A DNA stretch of 64,000 nucleotides, from contig JAZQQB010000009.1 of NCBI GenBank assembly GCA_045628865.1, positions 1 to 64,000 on the forward strand, given 5' to 3'. The notes under the pieces were generated by a model. The model made no database searches. It was not told the origin of the DNA and saw only the letters and a program-made list of their open reading frames with translations. This DNA is from Lachnospiraceae bacterium. GTDB lineage: Bacteria > Bacillota > Clostridia > Lachnospirales > Lachnospiraceae. The position numbers and the translations under genes are program-made. Positions 13,620 through 47,635 of the stretch are shown in pieces. How positions within the stretch are numbered: position 1 is the stretch's first letter; each line of letters starts with the position of its first letter.

Positions 13620-14483
13620 ATGGCCTCTATGAGAGACATCAAGAGACGAAAAAGTAGTATTCAAAGTACCCAGCAGATTACGAAAGCCATGAAACTGGTT
13701 TCTACCGTAAAGTTACAGCGTGCAAGACAAAAAGCAGAATCTGCAAAGCCTTACTTTACATGTATGTATGAAACCGTGACAGCAACCCTTGCAAGATGTG
13801 GAGACATTGAACATCCGTTTTTAAAACCAACACCTAATGGAAAAACAGCTATTGTAGCGATCACTTCCAATAGAGGTTTGGCTGGTGGATACAACAACAA
13901 TGTCTGCAAACTGATTACAACGGGTAATTATCCAACGGACGATGTGAACATTTATGCCATTGGTAAAAAAGGTCGAGAAGTTCTTGCAAAAGCAGGTTAT
14001 GATATCAAAAAAGATTATTCTGATATGATAGAAGAACCGCTATACGCAGACGCAATGATCCTTTGCAAGGAATTGTTAGATTCGTATGTGGCAGGTGAAA
14101 TTGATGAAATCGTTTTGGCGTACACATCATTCAAAAATACAGTTGTGCATGAACCTACGCTGTTAAAGCTTCTTCCGGTAGATGCAGATGCGTTAAAAAG
14201 GGATGGAGATAAACAGACAGCACAGGCACTTATGAACTTTGAACCAGAGGAAGAGGAAGCCATTGAGCTTATTATTCCTAAGTATGTCACAAGCTTGATC
14301 TATGGAGCAATGCTTGAGGCTGTTGCAAGTGAAAATGGTGCGAGAATGCAGGCTATGGATAATGCGACAAGCAATGCTGAGGAAATGATCAGCAGTTTAT
14401 CACTGCTATACAATAGAGCTCGTCAGGGATCTATTACACAGGAATTAACAGAAATTATCGCCGGTGCTTCGGCGATTTCATAG
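13620..14483 (+). CDS. atpG: F0F1 ATP synthase subunit gamma
   Basis: MASMRDIKRRKSSIQSTQQITKAMKLVS... gamma N-terminus; 287 aa. Confidence 0.9.
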   Translation: MASMRDIKRRKSSIQSTQQITKAMKLVSTVKLQRARQKAESAKPYFTCMYETVTATLARCGDIEHPFLKPTPNGKTAIVAITSNRGLAGGYNNNVCKLITTGNYPTDDVNIYAIGKKGREVLAKAGYDIKKDYSDMIEEPLYADAMILCKELLDSYVAGEIDEIVLAYTSFKNTVVHEPTLLKLLPVDADALKRDGDKQTAQALMNFEPEEEEAIELIIPKYVTSLIYGAMLEAVASENGARMQAMDNATSNAEEMISSLSLLYNRARQGSITQELTEIIAGASAIS

Positions 14484-14636
14484 AAACAATTTTTCAAAAT
14501 TTACGAAAAAACTGCTCGCAGTTTTATTCGATAAATCTTGAAAAATGTACGAAGATGAGCACGAAATGCGTAGCATGAGAGTGCGAATCTTCGCAGGATT
14601 GCGGGAGTGCTTGCATGGAGCAATCTGTGTTTCTAA

Positions 14637-30009: not shown

Positions 30010-30275
30010 TTGAATCGAATAAGAAAGACGTTGACGAAGACAGTACGTCATATGTGAAGCCTCAGAGAGTCGGAAATGGTGTGAACCGATGCAAGTAGCG
30101 TATGAAAGAAAATCACTTCTGAGTTGCATTCCCAAAAGTAATCGAGTAGGGAATGACGGAATCCTCCGTTATTGGAAACCATATAAAACCGCAATGCGGG
30201 GAGTATGATGTAATAGGTGGTATAACGAGTTTATTTTGACCTCGTCCTTTTACAGGACGGGGTCTTTTTATTTCA
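30010..30275 (+). ncRNA. T-box riboswitch leader (Ile specifier AUC) with terminator
   Basis: CAGAGAG stem-I motif, AAUCAC specifier region, GGUGGUA T-box-like element, terminator gacctcgtcc/ggacggggtc + T-run directly upstream of ileS. Confidence 0.6.
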
Positions 30276-41702: not shown

Positions 41703-41791
41703 GAGGCGGTTTGGCACGTAACAGTAGTCGGCTAATCAATGAATGGTTAGCCGACTACTTAATTAGTGGTAATATAAGGGAGAAACAGAAG

Positions 41792-42475
41792 ATGATCAAA
41801 GTCATTTTATGGGATATAGATGGCACTATGCTGAATTTTGAAGAAGCAGAAAAGATAGCAATCAGAAAATGCTTTGCCAAATTTGAGCTAGGTGAATGTA
41901 CGGATGAAATGCTTCATACATATTCTGGAATTAATCAGAAGTACTGGGAGAAACTGGAACGTGGTGAAATGACAAAGTCCGAGATTTTGGTAGGGCGATT
42001 TGTTGATTTTTTTACGGTTTCAGGAATGGATGTATCCAAAGCTGTTCCTTTTAACGAGGAATATCAAATAAGGCTTGGTGATACGGCTGTTTTTTATGAA
42101 GGTGGTCTAGAAACAGTAAAGGCATTGAAAGGAAAAGTACTTCAGTGTGCAGTGACAAATGGAACAAAAACAGCGCAGAATCTGAAATTGAAAAATTCAG
42201 GGTTGGTTCAGTTGCTTGATCATATTTTTATTTCAGAAGAAATGGGAATTGAAAAACCGGGAATTGGATTTTTCAATAAGGTATTCGATGTGATTGGCGA
42301 TTATGCAAAGGATGAAATCTTGATTGTGGGAGATTCATTAACAAGTGACATTCAGGGTGGAAATAATGCAGGGATAAAAACCTGCTGGTTTAACTTAAAC
42401 GGTAAGAAAAATGAATTAGGACTTCGAGTGGATTATGAAATCCGAAGTCTGTCAGAAGTGTTAAATATTGTATAG
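41792..42475 (+). CDS. HAD-family hydrolase, YjjG-like pyrimidine 5'-nucleotidase subfamily
   Basis: DIDGT motif I, C-terminal GDSLTSD motif; start at MIKVILWDIDGT. Confidence 0.65.
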   Translation: MIKVILWDIDGTMLNFEEAEKIAIRKCFAKFELGECTDEMLHTYSGINQKYWEKLERGEMTKSEILVGRFVDFFTVSGMDVSKAVPFNEEYQIRLGDTAVFYEGGLETVKALKGKVLQCAVTNGTKTAQNLKLKNSGLVQLLDHIFISEEMGIEKPGIGFFNKVFDVIGDYAKDEILIVGDSLTSDIQGGNNAGIKTCWFNLNGKKNELGLRVDYEIRSLSEVLNIV

Positions 42476-42556: not shown

Positions 42557-43180
42557 ATGAGCGAACATATATTAACGATCAACAATAGAATATCGTATTT
42601 AAAAGCAAGTGAAAATCCGTTATCAGCAGATGTGGGTGTGATAAAAGGGGAATCACGACAGTGGTTTTTTGATGTAGGAAGCAATGAGGAAGCGTATCAA
42701 CTGATTTTAAATGAATCCATAGATATCGGAATTGTGATTTCTCATTTTCATCCGGATCATATGGCAAATCTTGGAAAGATCATGGAGTCCAGAGAAGGAG
42801 GTTCATGTTTATATGTAGGGGACAATACCTTCAAATACTGCAAGATGGGAGAGGTTGTTTCAAAGGACATCTATATTGAAGATGGTTGCAAGCTTCATAT
42901 TTTTCCATTACCGTCTTCTCATGCGAAAGGTTCCTTAGGATTAGAAATAGATGAGGAATATTGTTTTTTAGGTGATGGAACGTATTCAACCAATAAGGGT
43001 GGAAAGATTGCATATAATGTACAGCTTCTACGGGAAGAAATTAAAGTTCTTTCAGGATTGAAGGCAACATATTTTATATTAAGTCACCGGGATCCGATTG
43101 TTCAGAAAAAGGAAGATGTGCTAAAGCAGTTAAATCGAATTTATGCTATGCGAAAAAAGGATGAGGCATATATCTACTGA
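42557..43180 (+). CDS. MBL-fold metallo-hydrolase
   Basis: HFHPDH metal-binding motif. Confidence 0.6.
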   Translation: MSEHILTINNRISYLKASENPLSADVGVIKGESRQWFFDVGSNEEAYQLILNESIDIGIVISHFHPDHMANLGKIMESREGGSCLYVGDNTFKYCKMGEVVSKDIYIEDGCKLHIFPLPSSHAKGSLGLEIDEEYCFLGDGTYSTNKGGKIAYNVQLLREEIKVLSGLKATYFILSHRDPIVQKKEDVLKQLNRIYAMRKKDEAYIY

Positions 43181-43208: not shown

Positions 43209-43237
43209 TTGTCATAAGAAAGTGATAATTGTATAAT
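43209..43237 (+). promoter_or_regulatory. sigma-A promoter TTGTCA-N17-TATAAT
   Basis: upstream of ThyX-like gene. Confidence 0.5.
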
Positions 43238-43284
43238 GCAAATACGTATATGTTATTTAGAAAAGCAAGTATGAGGGGGAAAGT

Positions 43285-44499
43285 ATGGTTAGTGTACAGG
43301 CAATTGCAGTAACAAGAGAAATTGAGAATCTTTCACCAATACAGATGAATGATTCTCTTACAATATTATCAGGCAAGTTTGGTGGGACTTGTTATGCAAA
43401 GGAAGGGTATGAAACCATCAAGACTCAACCAATTGAGAAAGCATTATCCAGAGCTGAGAATACAGCAAAGAGCGGACACCATTCTGTTTATCAGCATGGT
43501 TGTGTTACTATGGAAGTAAAGTGTTCGAAGATGCTTGCAATGCTTTTAAACTCTATTGGTATTTCCAATACATCTGAAAAAAGTGCGAGATATACAAAGA
43601 TGCAGCCGAAAAGTGCGTTAGAAGAAAAACTGTATTACAAGTGGCATGATATTTTTGTAAAATTGATCAATGAAGAATATCAGGACACCTTTACAGAAAA
43701 AGAAGTCGATAAGTTAGCATTTGAAAATGCAAGATATATGATTTCTGTATTTACACCAACTTCAATGGTATATACTTTACCATTTAGAAATATTTTCTAC
43801 GTACTTGATTGGTGTGAGGGAATGATTGAAAATCTGTCAAAGTTAGAAGGGGGCTTTAATCAAAAACTTAGAGAAGAGTTGATAGAGCTTGTAGATGCAC
43901 TTTCTGGTGTGGTTGGAGATAAGAGAAACTTTCATGATAATAAAAAAGAGCATTTTCGATTTATGCCTTATCAGGCAACTGGTGAGTTAGAGGATGATTC
44001 CTTACCTTATTATGGAGATGTGTATACTTCAAATTATCTGGCGTCCTTTGCATGTATTGCCCAGGAGCAGCGTCATAGAACACTTCGCGTTAAGATTAAT
44101 TTTTCTGGAAAAGATGCAGAGGAATATGGTTTCTATGTTCCTGAGATGATCAAAAATACGGTGTATGAACAAGGTTGGATTGAAGATTTACGTTCTGTGA
44201 AAGAATACTATCCTCAAGCAACATTGTTATTTGTCACAGAGCAGGGTATTTTTGAGGATTTCCAGTTAAAGTGTAAGGAACGTATGTGTGGACGTGCGCA
44301 GCTTGAAATTATGAAGTTAAATGAATGGATGACTGAACAGTTTATGGACCATAAAGAATGTCTATCAAGGGCTAATCAGAAGAGGTTGGAGTGTATGACA
44401 CCAAATGGGGATGTATGTCCAAGATGTATGTTCAAGGACTTTGCCTGTCAGGAAGGTTGTAAATGGGGACCTAAGGGTGCACTTAACAGATTGATTTAA
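43285..44499 (+). CDS. divergent ThyX-fold (flavin-dependent thymidylate synthase-like) protein with C-terminal Cys-rich extension
   Basis: SGHHSVYQHGCVTMEVK aligns to ThyX H.SV.EH/FTFHVK; SNTSEKSARY aligns to S.NE.SGRY; canonical RHR absent at expected site but RHRx8S occurs ~200 aa later; C-terminal CxxGxxCxxC...C...C cluster. Confidence 0.5.
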   Translation: MVSVQAIAVTREIENLSPIQMNDSLTILSGKFGGTCYAKEGYETIKTQPIEKALSRAENTAKSGHHSVYQHGCVTMEVKCSKMLAMLLNSIGISNTSEKSARYTKMQPKSALEEKLYYKWHDIFVKLINEEYQDTFTEKEVDKLAFENARYMISVFTPTSMVYTLPFRNIFYVLDWCEGMIENLSKLEGGFNQKLREELIELVDALSGVVGDKRNFHDNKKEHFRFMPYQATGELEDDSLPYYGDVYTSNYLASFACIAQEQRHRTLRVKINFSGKDAEEYGFYVPEMIKNTVYEQGWIEDLRSVKEYYPQATLLFVTEQGIFEDFQLKCKERMCGRAQLEIMKLNEWMTEQFMDHKECLSRANQKRLECMTPNGDVCPRCMFKDFACQEGCKWGPKGALNRLI

Positions 44500-44642
44500 A
44501 TTGAATGGGGACGAGAAATATTTCTCGTCCCCAACGTCTTCTATGACATTTTAGAATTAAAAATGTATATTTCAGAGGTTATCCCTTTTTCTTTATAAGG
44601 GATTTGATATGATTGCTATATCAAGAAGAAAGGAAACAATGA

Positions 44643-45386
44643 ATGGAAATTAGTCTCATATTTTGTATTACAGTTGTTGTAGCATTATTGATTTGTATTT
44701 CAATTTTTGTTCGAATGCTGAAGAATTTGAGAAATGATTACGATACGGTGATTGCCAGCTATCAGAATCTAGAAATACTAAATCAGACCTTAAGAGCTCA
44801 GAGGCATGATTACATGAATCATCTTCAAGTGGTGATCAGTATGATTGAGCTAGAGGAATACGATAATCTTAAAGATTATTTGGAACCAGTTTATCAAGAT
44901 ATTCAGAAAACGGGAAAAGCACTGAAAACTTCTAAGCCAGCAGTCAATGCTTTGTTGGCAGTAAAAGCCAATGAAACAAAGACAAAGGGAATTGATATGT
45001 ATCTTCAAATCAAATCGAATTTAAAGGAACTGCATATTCCTGATTGGGAGCTTTGCAAGGTATTATCTAATATTATTGATAATGCAGCCACGGCATTAGA
45101 TGGAAGTCAGAAAGAAAAAAAAGAGATTATTGTAGATGTAACAGAAGACCAGGATAGATACATTTTTGAGATATCCAATAACGGACCCAAAATTCCAGAT
45201 GAAATGCAAAAACAGATATTCCAATATGGAGTAACTTCTAAAAAAGAAGAGGGACATGGAATAGGGTTAGCCATTGTTGATAAGGTAGTGAAAGATTATC
45301 ATGGAGAAATTAAGCTTTCTTCGGATGATAAAGAAACAAAATTTATCGTTGTTTTTGATAAAAAGACAGGAGGTGAAAGCAAATGA
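44643..45386 (+). CDS. small membrane-anchored GHKL sensor histidine kinase (SpoB_a/DcuS-like H-box RHDYMNHL)
   Basis: one N-terminal TM, H-box, GHKL ATPase N/G boxes. Confidence 0.7.
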   Translation: MEISLIFCITVVVALLICISIFVRMLKNLRNDYDTVIASYQNLEILNQTLRAQRHDYMNHLQVVISMIELEEYDNLKDYLEPVYQDIQKTGKALKTSKPAVNALLAVKANETKTKGIDMYLQIKSNLKELHIPDWELCKVLSNIIDNAATALDGSQKEKKEIIVDVTEDQDRYIFEISNNGPKIPDEMQKQIFQYGVTSKKEEGHGIGLAIVDKVVKDYHGEIKLSSDDKETKFIVVFDKKTGGESK

Positions 45387-45856
45387 ATACATTTGAAACC
45401 ATCGGATTGATTTTATTGATTTTAGGTTTGATTCTGGTTTTCATTGAAATGCTTTTACCGGGCTTCGGTGCACCGGGAATATCGGGTGCCATCTGCCTGG
45501 TTGTGGGCATAGGAATGATGACGAAAACATTGGAGCAGACGTTGACACTTGCCATTATTGTAGTGGTGGCAATTGCTGTGATGATGACCATTGTCGTTTT
45601 GTTTTTTCATCGTGGACGAGATCGATCGCCAATTAAGTTACAGGAGAAGATGGAAGCTCCAGAGGGATTTTTAAATGAGTCAGATATTAAGTATCTAGTT
45701 GGTAAGGAAGGTGTTGCATTAACCGATTTAAGACCAGCAGGAAAATGTGATATTGATGGTATAACCTTTGATGTAAGATCAGAGGGGCAATACATCAACA
45801 AGGGATCAGTTATCAAAATTGTTCGAGTTGAAGGAAATACATTGATTGTTAAATAG
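45383..45856 (+). CDS. NfeD-family membrane protein (YqeZ-like, OB-fold C-terminus)
   Basis: hydrophobic N-terminus plus C-terminal beta-rich domain; 4-nt overlap with upstream HK. Confidence 0.7.
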   Translation: MNTFETIGLILLILGLILVFIEMLLPGFGAPGISGAICLVVGIGMMTKTLEQTLTLAIIVVVAIAVMMTIVVLFFHRGRDRSPIKLQEKMEAPEGFLNESDIKYLVGKEGVALTDLRPAGKCDIDGITFDVRSEGQYINKGSVIKIVRVEGNTLIVK

Positions 45857-45878
45857 AGCATGATAAGGAGTGAGGATA

Positions 45879-46871
45879 ATGGAAATTAAGATAGCGATTA
45901 TTTCAGTAGTTGCATTGGTTTTGTTATTGTTTTTTACATTTGTACCAGTAGGATTGTGGATTTCAGCAATTGCATCAGGAGTTAAGATTGGTATTTTTGA
46001 CCTAGTTGGAATGAGACTTAGACGTGTTAGACCATCTAGCATTGTACTTGCATTGATCAAGGCAACTAAGGCAGGATTAACCTTAAAAGCGAATCAGTTA
46101 GAGGCACATTATTTAGCTGGAGGTAGTGTAGATCAGGTAGTAAATGCATTGATTGCTGCAGAACGTGCAGGAATTCAGTTGTCATTTGAAAAAGCATCTG
46201 CAATTGATCTTGCCGGTAGAAATGTTTTTGAAGCAGTTAAGATGAGCGTAACACCAAAGGTTATTGAAACTTCTGTAATCTCAGCAGTTGCAAAAGACGG
46301 AATTGAATTGATGGTAAAAGCAAGAGTTACTGTTCGAACAAATATTGACAGATTGATCGGTGGTGCTGGTGAAGATACAGTTCTTGCTCGAATTGGTGAA
46401 GGTATTGTTACTACAGTAGGTTCTGCACAGACTCATAGTGAAGTGTTGGAGAATCCAGATGAAATTTCAAAGGTTATTCTTCAAAAGGGATTGGATGCAG
46501 GTACTGCATTTGAAATCATTTCTATTGATATTGCTGATATTGATATTGGAAGAAACGTTGGAGCGAACTTATTAAGTCTTCAGGCTGAGGCAGATAATAA
46601 GATTGCACAGGCAAGAGCTGAGGAAAGACGTGCAATGGCGGTTGCATTAGAGCAAGAAATGAAGGCCGATGTAGTAAAAGCAAAGGCAGACGTTGTCAGA
46701 GCTGAAGCAGAGGTTCCTAAGGCACTTGCAGAAGCACTTAGAAATGGAAATATTGGTGCAATGGATTACTATACAATGAAAAATGTTATTGCTGATACAG
46801 AAATGAAAACTGGAATTCAGAATGCAACAAATGCCTATGCCAGCAACAAAGAAAATGACAAGAGAGAATAA
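45879..46871 (+). CDS. floA: flotillin-like protein FloA (UPF0365/YqfA family, SPFH)
   Basis: MEIKIAII...[29 protein letters not shown] strongly resembles YqfA/FloA N-terminus. Confidence 0.8.
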
Positions 46872-46888
46872 TAAAGTAGGTACTAGTA

Positions 46889-47635
46889 ATGATCAAAGTT
46901 ATGGTGATTGAGGATGAACCAGAAATCAGAAGATTGCTTATAAAAATGATAGAAAGAAAGGAAGGCTTCACAGTTGTCTGTGAGGCCGATTCCAATATGC
47001 AGGCAGTTTCTCTTTTTACTGTGAATCGTCCACAGGTTGTTTTTGTAGATGTGGATTTAAATGGGGAAAATGGATTAGAGTGTGCAAAAGTTTTGACTGA
47101 AATCGATCCAAAGGTAAAGATTATTTTTGCAACTGCACATAGTGAATATATGGCTAATGCATTTGAAATATATGCATTTGATTATTTGTTAAAACCATTC
47201 AAAATTGAGCGAATCATGAAAACTCTTTCCAAAATTGAAGAGATGAATCTGGCAGCTGAGAAAGAAGGAAATGATTCATTGGTGCAGATCTCTGCGAAAA
47301 GTGACGAAGATGATAAGTTATTGATTAAGGGAAAGGAGCAGGTCTTTTTCATAGAGAAAAAGGATATTGTTTTTGTGGAGCGTGAAAACAGTGTTACTAA
47401 TATTATAACTTTGGAAGACTCTTATCATACCTCTACATCCTTAAGTGATTTAGAGGAAAAACTTCCAGAGAATCAGTTTATGCGCTGCCATAAATCTTAT
47501 ATTATCAATGTGAAAAAAATCAGTTCTGTAGAGCCATATGGAAGATGGACCTATGTGGTTCACTTTAAGGGTATGAAAGAAACAGCATTGATCACACATG
47601 AAAAGTATAATGAGATTAAGGATCGATATTTGTAA
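46889..47635 (+). CDS. LytTR-family response regulator
   Basis: receiver domain (VDVDLNG) + C-terminal LytTR domain. Confidence 0.8.
   Translation: MIKVMVIEDEPEIRRLLIKMIERKEGFTVVCEADSNMQAVSLFTVNRPQVVFVDVDLNGENGLECAKVLTEIDPKVKIIFATAHSEYMANAFEIYAFDYLLKPFKIERIMKTLSKIEEMNLAAEKEGNDSLVQISAKSDEDDKLLIKGKEQVFFIEKKDIVFVERENSVTNIITLEDSYHTSTSLSDLEEKLPENQFMRCHKSYIINVKKISSVEPYGRWTYVVHFKGMKETALITHEKYNEIKDRYL

Follow-up and report, generated by a model that had tools for sequence, protein, structure and literature searches.

Canonical flavin-dependent thymidylate synthases (FDTS, or ThyX; Pfam family PF02511), represented by the enzymes of Thermotoga maritima (Tm; TM0449), Mycobacterium tuberculosis (Mtb), Helicobacter pylori (Hp) and PBCV-1, consist of four identical subunits of 190-260 amino acids (aa), and each active site is composed from several ThyX folds. 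In the M. tuberculosis and H. pylori enzymes, one subunit (A) contributes the RHR motif (Mtb residues 95-97) and Arg199 (Tm R174), which bind the phosphates of flavin adenine dinucleotide (FAD) and deoxyuridine monophosphate (dUMP); a second subunit (B) contributes Ser71 and Arg190 (Tm T55 and R165), which bind FAD; and a third (C) contributes Arg87 (Hp R66), the backbone of residue 103 (Tm E86) and the lid residues Ser105, Arg107 and Tyr108 (Tm S88, R90 and Y91), which bind dUMP and cover the reacting atoms (PMC6514825). Gln75 and Arg182 lie on one monomer and Ser88/Gln89 on the other (PMC3498832). S88 and Y91 are strictly conserved and critical, a role has also been described for R90, R78 stabilizes FADH-, and H53 stacks on the folate (PMC11940539). 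Here, we describe a member of this superfamily with a different build. It is encoded in a stretch of 64,000 nucleotides of a Lachnospiraceae bacterium (GenBank assembly GCA_045628865.1, contig JAZQQB010000009.1, positions 1 to 64,000 of the forward strand; hereafter "the window"), by a coding sequence at 43285..44499 (+ strand, ATG start) that is supported by the open reading frame (ORF) listing, Pfam, homolog searches and a structure model. Instead of four identical subunits, the protein has two non-identical ThyX folds in one chain of 404 aa, with the elements of the RHRx7S signature divided between them and a four-cysteine site added. We put at roughly 70% the probability that this gene encodes a functional ThyX thymidylate synthase (an activity predicted from the sequence) built as a single-chain pseudo-heterodimer; in the two-domain architecture with complementary halves as such, our confidence is high. 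While the kind of enzyme is known, the build, with complementary half-sites and a conserved four-cysteine site, is hitherto undescribed: our full-text literature searches returned no description of a fused, tandem, split-motif, atypical or iron-sulfur (Fe-S)/metal-binding ThyX.

The similarity of the first ~175 aa to ThyX, which the first-pass annotation of this DNA had recognized, is significant, and membership of the PF02511 superfamily is supported by both the Pfam threshold and the fold. The Thy1 profile of PF02511 scores 54.2 bits against a gathering cutoff of 24.8 (E=2e-14) and matches two stretches of the protein, the better of which runs from residue 33 to residue 173 (profile positions 17-161 of 191). 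The N-terminal half (N-half; residues 1-212, 43285..43920, + strand) is a complete ThyX fold that lacks the RHR motif and an equivalent of Tm R174. It is followed by an inter-domain linker (residues 213-243, 43921..44013, + strand), in which the model confidence is low at residues 222-228, and by a truncated second ThyX fold (C-half; residues 244-372, 44014..44400, + strand) that was recognized by Pfam, the model and structure searches. The N-half matches Thy1 with E=8e-12 and aligns to TM0449 in hhalign with a probability of 94% (E=1.6e-7), whereas the C-half aligns to TM0449 with E=0.0034 over 46 columns, including its FYVP motif (FYIP in TM0449). The isolated C-half gives a weak Thy1 match at profile positions 66-124, which correspond to the RHR region, and when the C-halves of 30 divergent family members were searched alone, 23 matched Thy1 (best E=3.7e-6) and no other family was matched more than twice. 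The family profile reaches ThyX chains in the PDB through the N-half only; by sequence, a C-half profile found no match in the PDB. The AlphaFold2 model of the full-length protein has a predicted local distance difference test score (pLDDT) of 81.6 and a predicted template-modeling score (pTM) of 0.82, and that of the C-half alone has a pLDDT of 88.1. With Foldseek, the full model matches only chains of ThyX and of PolB in the PDB. The extra domain is a second ThyX fold in which about 55 residues at the start of the canonical fold are missing.

The length of 404 aa, which the first-pass annotation had noted as almost twice that of a canonical ThyX, is shared by a large family. Searches with the protein itself returned 1,207 homologs, nearly all of 400-408 aa and with full coverage (no record in the contig index searched was identical), and a diverse family profile extended this to 3,298, again with few members outside 380-410 aa. 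HMMER searches of 1.84 billion representatives resulted in 681 clusters at 50% identity, 347 of which fall below 1e-30; almost all of these clusters are 380-490 aa long and span both halves. A frameshift, a mis-assembly or a fusion of two neighboring genes in a single assembly, for which nothing speaks except the unusual length, is thereby reduced to a negligible possibility: more than 3,000 full-length homologs of the same architecture come from independent NCBI, ENA, JGI and Logan assemblies, and the AlphaFold2 model sets the domains confidently relative to each other, as its pTM indicates. The sources of the family include Lachnospira, Jutongia, Clostridium sp., and uncultured Lachnospiraceae and Clostridia; among the carriers are Lachnospira intestinalis CLA-AA-H89B (NZ_JBBMFS01), Jutongia hominis BX3 (NZ_JACRSW01), Clostridium sp. 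AM49-4BH (NZ_QUFB01) and a contig of 1.48 Mb (ERZ28761619:contig_10966). Viral contigs from IMG/VR also hold full-length members, and a tblastn search of the family against the INPHARED phages gave no match. The fused ThyX family is widely distributed among gut Clostridia and certain of their phages; NCBI and JGI automatically name its members "FAD-dependent thymidylate synthase" or "thymidylate synthase ThyX".

For the catalytic residues, we mapped each half onto TM0449 in a separate hhalign run, using a TM0449 sequence identical to PDB 1kq4_A and anchoring the numbering of S88, Y91 and R174 in mutant PDB entries; conservation was counted among 361 full-length members aligned to the family hidden Markov model. 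In the N-half, the motif HHSVYQH (43477..43497; this and all motifs below lie on the + strand) holds H65 (Tm H53; 361/361), S67 (Tm T55; 354/361) and H71 (Tm H59). The SEKSARY loop (43573..43593) provides E98, S100, R102 and Y103 (Tm E86, S88, R90 and Y91), each conserved in 353-360 members, and ENARY (43723..43737) provides E147 and R150 (Tm E144 and R147; 360/361 each), so that H65, E98, S100, R102, Y103, E147 and R150 range from 353 to 361 of 361. R168 (Tm R165) is conserved in 298 members, and K82, at the position of Hp R66 and Mtb R87, is invariant. What this half has lost is the set around the RHR motif: M86, L87, S90, I91 and G92 occupy the slots of R74, Q75, R78, H79 and R80, and the R174 equivalent is absent. 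The degenerate RHR slot, S90-I91-G92 (43552..43560), lies within LLNSIGIS, just as had been read from the sequence by eye, and the profile, hhalign and the family alignment all place it there. None of the 361 members carries RHR in this slot. In the alignment of the family profile to ThyX chains of the PDB, the canonical RHR falls opposite N89-S90-x, and the S.RY and E.AR motifs are kept.

The C-half shows the complementary losses. Its QEQRHR motif (44062..44079) provides Q260 (Tm Q75; 349/361) and R263-H264-R265 (Tm R78-H79-R80; 358-360/361), the sole RHR in the protein. Further on, RMCGRAQLE (44281..44307) provides R333 (Tm R174; 360/361), the fully conserved C335 (361/361) and an AQxE equivalent to Tm AQWE; this motif was aligned by eye to Tm NLRADSHAQWE, with R333-M-C-G-R-AQLE opposite R174-A-D-S-H-AQWE, and its conservation was taken from the family alignment. 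F273, G275 and K276 stand in the slots of S88, R90 and Y91, and in both halves the lost slots are variable across the 361 members. The first-pass annotation had reported a distal RHRx8S. The RHR is indeed there, about 175 aa downstream of the canonical slot, and S274 completes the literal motif; considering that S274 is conserved in just 110 of the 361 members, this serine is coincidental. There is no contiguous RHRx7S in one domain, and in a standard ThyX alignment the catalytic residues do not all fall in their expected positions: S-I-G occupies the RHR slot of the N-half, which carries the functional S100, while the RHR is located in the other domain. The equivalents of Tm H53, Q75, R78, H79, R80, E86, S88, R90, Y91, E144, R147, R165 and R174 nevertheless each occur once per chain, in 349-361 of the 361 members except for the R165 equivalent (298). 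As far as the alignments tell, every residue with an A role is confined to the C-half and every residue with a B or C role to the N-half; in other words, the predicted catalytic set is split, not lost. Because RHR and R174 are naturally supplied by another subunit, the distal RHR would play the role of a neighboring subunit, with no need for an unusual fold-back.

We therefore propose a design in which, after a duplication or fusion, each half would have kept one role, the C-half as a dedicated A subunit and the N-half as a dedicated B/C subunit. Two chains would assemble into a D2-like pseudo-tetramer, in which each C-half would nucleate one live site that is completed by both N-halves, while the two sites needing an N-half in role A would be dead. 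Probably, then, half of the sites are live, and a dimer would have two active sites and two FAD, i.e., one FAD per chain. The chemistry would be the flavin-dependent conversion of dUMP and methylenetetrahydrofolate (CH2-THF) to deoxythymidine monophosphate (dTMP). In this respect the protein resembles canonical ThyX, with which it shares the fold in both halves, the dUMP, FAD and catalytic residues, the composite site made from several ThyX folds, and presumably the chemistry with FAD, CH2-THF and dUMP. The design would represent a natural case of subfunctionalization inside an oligomeric enzyme, where a composite site that identical subunits normally build is divided between two fused half-enzymes, each lacking what the other has kept. 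By analogy, the fusion appears to use the principle of the engineered ThyX heterotetramers of Leduc and colleagues (2004), which reportedly mixed differently inactivated subunits; those were laboratory point mutants of one gene, whereas here the complementation is fixed by evolution in one polypeptide.

Other long ThyX homologs are the best whole-length structural matches in BFVD: gp020 of Microcystis phage Ma-LMM01 (TMq 0.55 over 488 columns) and, from Bacillus phage SP-15, a protein of 413 aa. The 491-aa gp020, annotated as "putative thymidylate synthase" (locus L132, 15717-17192, - strand), also has an N-half without RHR: the slot reads NTM, and E-R-S-T-R-Y are kept. Its single RHR is found at residue 363, which shows that the split-site fusion recurs in a lineage that is about 11% identical. 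It differs from the present family in being without the cysteine tail, and its C-half has cysteines at residues 430 and 442 only. Long phage ThyX homologs such as gp020 are known from annotation alone (PMC5780444). Thy1 of Thermus thermophilus (PDB 6j61), another Foldseek match, is likewise a ThyX with an extra C-terminal part; at 270 aa, however, its extension is not a second ThyX fold, and its RHR is presumably normal in a single domain. Chlamydial ThyX, studied by Griffin and colleagues in 2005, is reportedly a double-length protein of roughly 530 aa and an active FDTS. Should it truly be of double length, the fused design may extend to it, and a characterized precedent would then exist. 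Chlamydial ThyX was too divergent for early ThyX phylogenies (PMC6171736).

Regarding function, the first-pass annotation had suggested a neofunctionalized enzyme rather than a thymidylate synthase. The gene contexts of the family do not support this, and the suggestion is probably wrong. In a clade of 396-aa homologs (about 36% identical), the ThyX-like gene lies in a tight operon of the order FolD, serine hydroxymethyltransferase (SHMT), ThyX-like gene, thymidylate kinase (Tmk) and QueA, and in a clade of 382-aa homologs a dihydrofolate reductase (DHFR) gene starts 20 nt downstream of it (Pfam E=8e-65). On phage contigs from IMG/VR, it is found by genes for a family-B DNA polymerase, helicases and a Pnkp-like protein. 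Given these folate/dTMP and phage replication contexts, combined with the intact catalytic set, dTMP synthesis is the best-supported function. Most Clostridia depend on ThyX-type enzymes: ThyX has been found in 43 of 49 genomes and ThyA in 10 of 49 (PMC5954106). Neither canonical ThyX (TM0449 as query) nor ThyA (E. coli protein as query) was found by tblastn in the 64-kb window or in the flanking DNA of the bacterial and metagenome loci L001-L114.

The alternative is that the same flavin- and folate-dependent C5-methylation acts on another substrate (UMP, as in PolB, dCMP or uracil in nucleic acids), or that the protein carries out another one-carbon transfer, and that housekeeping dTMP synthesis is not its task. 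The strong divergence from canonical ThyX fits such a change: the full protein found no meaningful match among PDB sequences with phmmer, and the score for TIGR02170, the curated thyX equivalog, reaches just 27.7 bits where the cutoff is 87.9. PolB, the polyoxin UMP/dUMP methylase (PDB 4p5a, 4p5b), is among the structural matches, and an extra metal site near the substrate-binding arginine could change the chemistry. Additionally, the long ThyX-like protein mentioned above occurs in Bacillus phage SP-15, the DNA of which is understood to be hypermodified at thymine. PolB, however, is a single-domain homotetramer from an antibiotic cluster, whereas the neighborhoods here hold housekeeping or phage replication genes and no nucleoside-antibiotic cluster; none of more than 130 loci has a biosynthetic-cluster context. 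All canonical dUMP- and FAD-contact residues are conserved in one half or the other, other clades link the gene in operons to SHMT, FolD, Tmk and DHFR, and the family has the looks of a broadly conserved, single-copy housekeeping gene. Altogether, we consider a change of substrate or reaction improbable.

Several points weigh against a functional thymidylate synthase of this design. The TIGR02170 score given above is one of them. Linkage to folate and dTMP genes is seen in two clades only and is absent from the clade of the window and from the 80 metagenome loci sampled; indeed, when DHFR, SHMT, FolD and Tmk were searched with tblastn in the window and in L001-L114, matches were obtained only in the loci from which these genes came (L022-L027). 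In the literature searched, we found no biochemical data for any family member. Finally, the comparison of N-half and C-half profiles in hhalign is not significant (E=0.07). The duplication or fusion is accordingly either ancient, or the halves have strongly diverged; an internal duplication cannot be demonstrated from this comparison of sequences and rests on the Pfam matches of the C-halves and on structure.

The synthesis of thymidylate is an essential process and a drug target, and the ThyX inhibitors under development rest on homotetrameric enzymes; fluoropyrimidines and antifolates, moreover, act on gut bacteria. Many Lachnospiraceae, like other gut Clostridia and some of their phages, probably make their dTMP with enzymes of the present family, which bears a generic name and falls short of the curated thyX model.

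The cysteine-rich C-terminus noted in the first-pass annotation is present as C370-x7-C378-x2-C381-x6-C388-x3-C392, with C330 and C335 further upstream. Three of these cysteines, C381-x6-C388-x3-C392 (44425..44460, + strand), are putative ligands conserved in 355, 361 and 359 of the 361 members, and together with C335 they are found in 353. C378 (138/361), C330 (298/361), C358 and C370 are not general. Most of the exceptions have a cysteine elsewhere that compensates for the loss. Several members without C381 have a new cysteine 3 or 4 residues past C392 (CVEPCIWGC, CKEPCIWNC, CKEPCYFGC, CSRPCFFTC), and a phage-associated clade without C381 has a C335-C336 doublet in the form ER(L/I)C-C. Since two independent ligand swaps keep the count at four, we predict an obligate tetra-cysteine metal center (Cys4 site). 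C335 is located two residues past R333, the R174 equivalent, so this center should be near the live active site. It would bind a metal and tie the C-terminal tail, which is modeled as coil with a pLDDT of 92-96, to the loop just past the dUMP-binding R333.

Judging from the sequences, zinc and an Fe-S cluster are about equally likely occupants, and we lean slightly to Fe-S, as the family occurs only in anaerobes and Cys-Cys doublet ligands are used in one of its clades. Ligation by tandem cysteines is known from [4Fe-4S] clusters, namely N2 of complex I and that of APS reductase, and is unusual for mononuclear zinc. The enzyme may also be the same thymidylate synthase with a Cys4 site that is a purely structural zinc, stapling the C-terminal extension to the C-half and having no redox role. 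Four cysteine ligands and a confidently modeled coil are what zinc knuckles have, the clade of the window does carry a more zinc-like CxxC knuckle (C378-x2-C381, within CARCG), and canonical ThyX requires no additional redox center. Against this, a general double knuckle is contradicted by the presence of C378 in only 138 of the 361 members, one clade has the adjacent C335-C336 pair, and the sources sampled are all anaerobic gut or digester Clostridia and their phages. We regard a structural zinc as a tentative reading, somewhat short of even odds. A bolder reading, which we consider rather unlikely in its entirety, is that the Cys4 site holds a [4Fe-4S] cluster by the live active site, through which electrons would pass from reduced ferredoxin or flavodoxin to FAD. 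The family would then be a class of thymidylate synthase that is linked to ferredoxin, does not depend on NAD(P)H and is specific to strict anaerobes and their phages, with the build of a natural single-chain heterodimer and a half-of-sites architecture. If the Cys4 site were indeed a redox-active Fe-S cluster, this would bear on the long-standing question of how the ThyX flavin is reduced in vivo in anaerobes.

Directly upstream of the ThyX-like gene, two divergent clades have a radical S-adenosylmethionine (SAM) protein of 293-296 aa (L022, 9042-9932; L029, 5057-5938). The two copies are 65% identical and activase-like (NrdG/PflA-type), far under any equivalog cutoff. This gene may have a functional link to the Cys4 site and its redox question, or may be there by mere synteny.

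In the window, coding starts with the ATG at 43285 and not at 43209, where the first-pass annotation had placed the start; the latter position is non-coding and is the first base of a sigma70-like promoter, TTGTCA-17-TATAAT (43209..43237, + strand), which was identified by consensus match alone (11/12). A ribosome-binding site, GAGGGGG (43274..43280, + strand), can be read 4 nt upstream of the ATG. Seven nt past the stop codon, a 12-bp GC-rich palindrome (44506..44533), without a clear T-run on the + strand, could form a hairpin that is the probable transcript end of the gene, and a further promoter-like site lies upstream of the gene that follows. Flanked by a promoter of its own and by this hairpin, the ThyX-like gene looks like a separate transcription unit. 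An Rfam scan found no riboswitch or other Rfam element near it.

Of the neighbors named in the first-pass annotation, pncB (NF003704; 478 bits, cutoff 379) and the YjjG-family pyrimidine nucleotidase (TIGR02254; 189 bits, cutoff 160) were correctly identified. The ORF of the latter (41711-42475, + strand) is listed with a TTG start and matches its family from residue 30; an in-frame methionine at residue 28 (MIKVILWDIDGT) is the likelier start. The metallo-β-lactamase (MBL) assignment of the third neighbor (42557-43180, + strand, 207 aa) is weakly supported: it has the HFHPDH motif typical of the MBL fold, no Pfam match at 1e-5, and weak NCBIfam MBL matches with E about 4e-3. The ORF seems to encode a small and divergent MBL-like protein. 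The nucleotide-metabolism character that had been ascribed to the locus did not hold up. In none of 21 related genomes is pncB, YjjG or the MBL-like gene found near the homolog, and we rejected a functional neighborhood with these genes.

The recurrent neighbors in related genomes are instead unrelated housekeeping genes (TagF/TarI/TarJ-like genes, LeuCD and que genes), and these look like plain synteny. A queuosine precursor cluster (QueD, QueE, FolE, QueC and QueF-like ORFs, named by eye from their translations) lies ~2-5 kb upstream in ~7 Lachnospiraceae loci of L004-L013. In L022-L024, a spore-photoproduct-lyase-family gene follows the DHFR gene. In several divergent clades, the region downstream of the ThyX-like gene encodes a DnaQ-like RNase_T exonuclease of ~205 aa (L028, L031, L102, L107, L108, L112 and L115-L117), frequently accompanied by DUF2752 and a small, CD225-like membrane protein. 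Pfam confirmed RNase_T in L028, L031, L102 and L112; in the remaining loci, it was deduced from ORFs of the same size. Although IMG/VR lists L115-L117 as viral, they have the same bacterial RNase_T context.

Elsewhere in the window, Rfam models match at 14481-14635 (+ strand; Clostridiales-1 small RNA, gathering-level, 98.6 bits) and at 30022-30252 (+ strand; T-box leader, 93.1 bits, barely over the cutoff of 93). The window has about 36% GC, and its GC skew is positive in all 2-kb bins of 1-64000; all substantial ORFs between 40 and 48 kb are on the + strand. Skew and strand bias fit a long stretch of leading strand in a Firmicute of low GC content. Downstream of the ThyX-like gene, an NfeD-FloA (flotillin) pair is placed between a SpoOB-like/GHKL histidine kinase and a LytTR response regulator in one tight block (44643-47635, + strand), in which the start of NfeD overlaps the stop codon of the kinase. 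It is unusual for a two-component system to be interleaved in this way with genes of a membrane-raft module.

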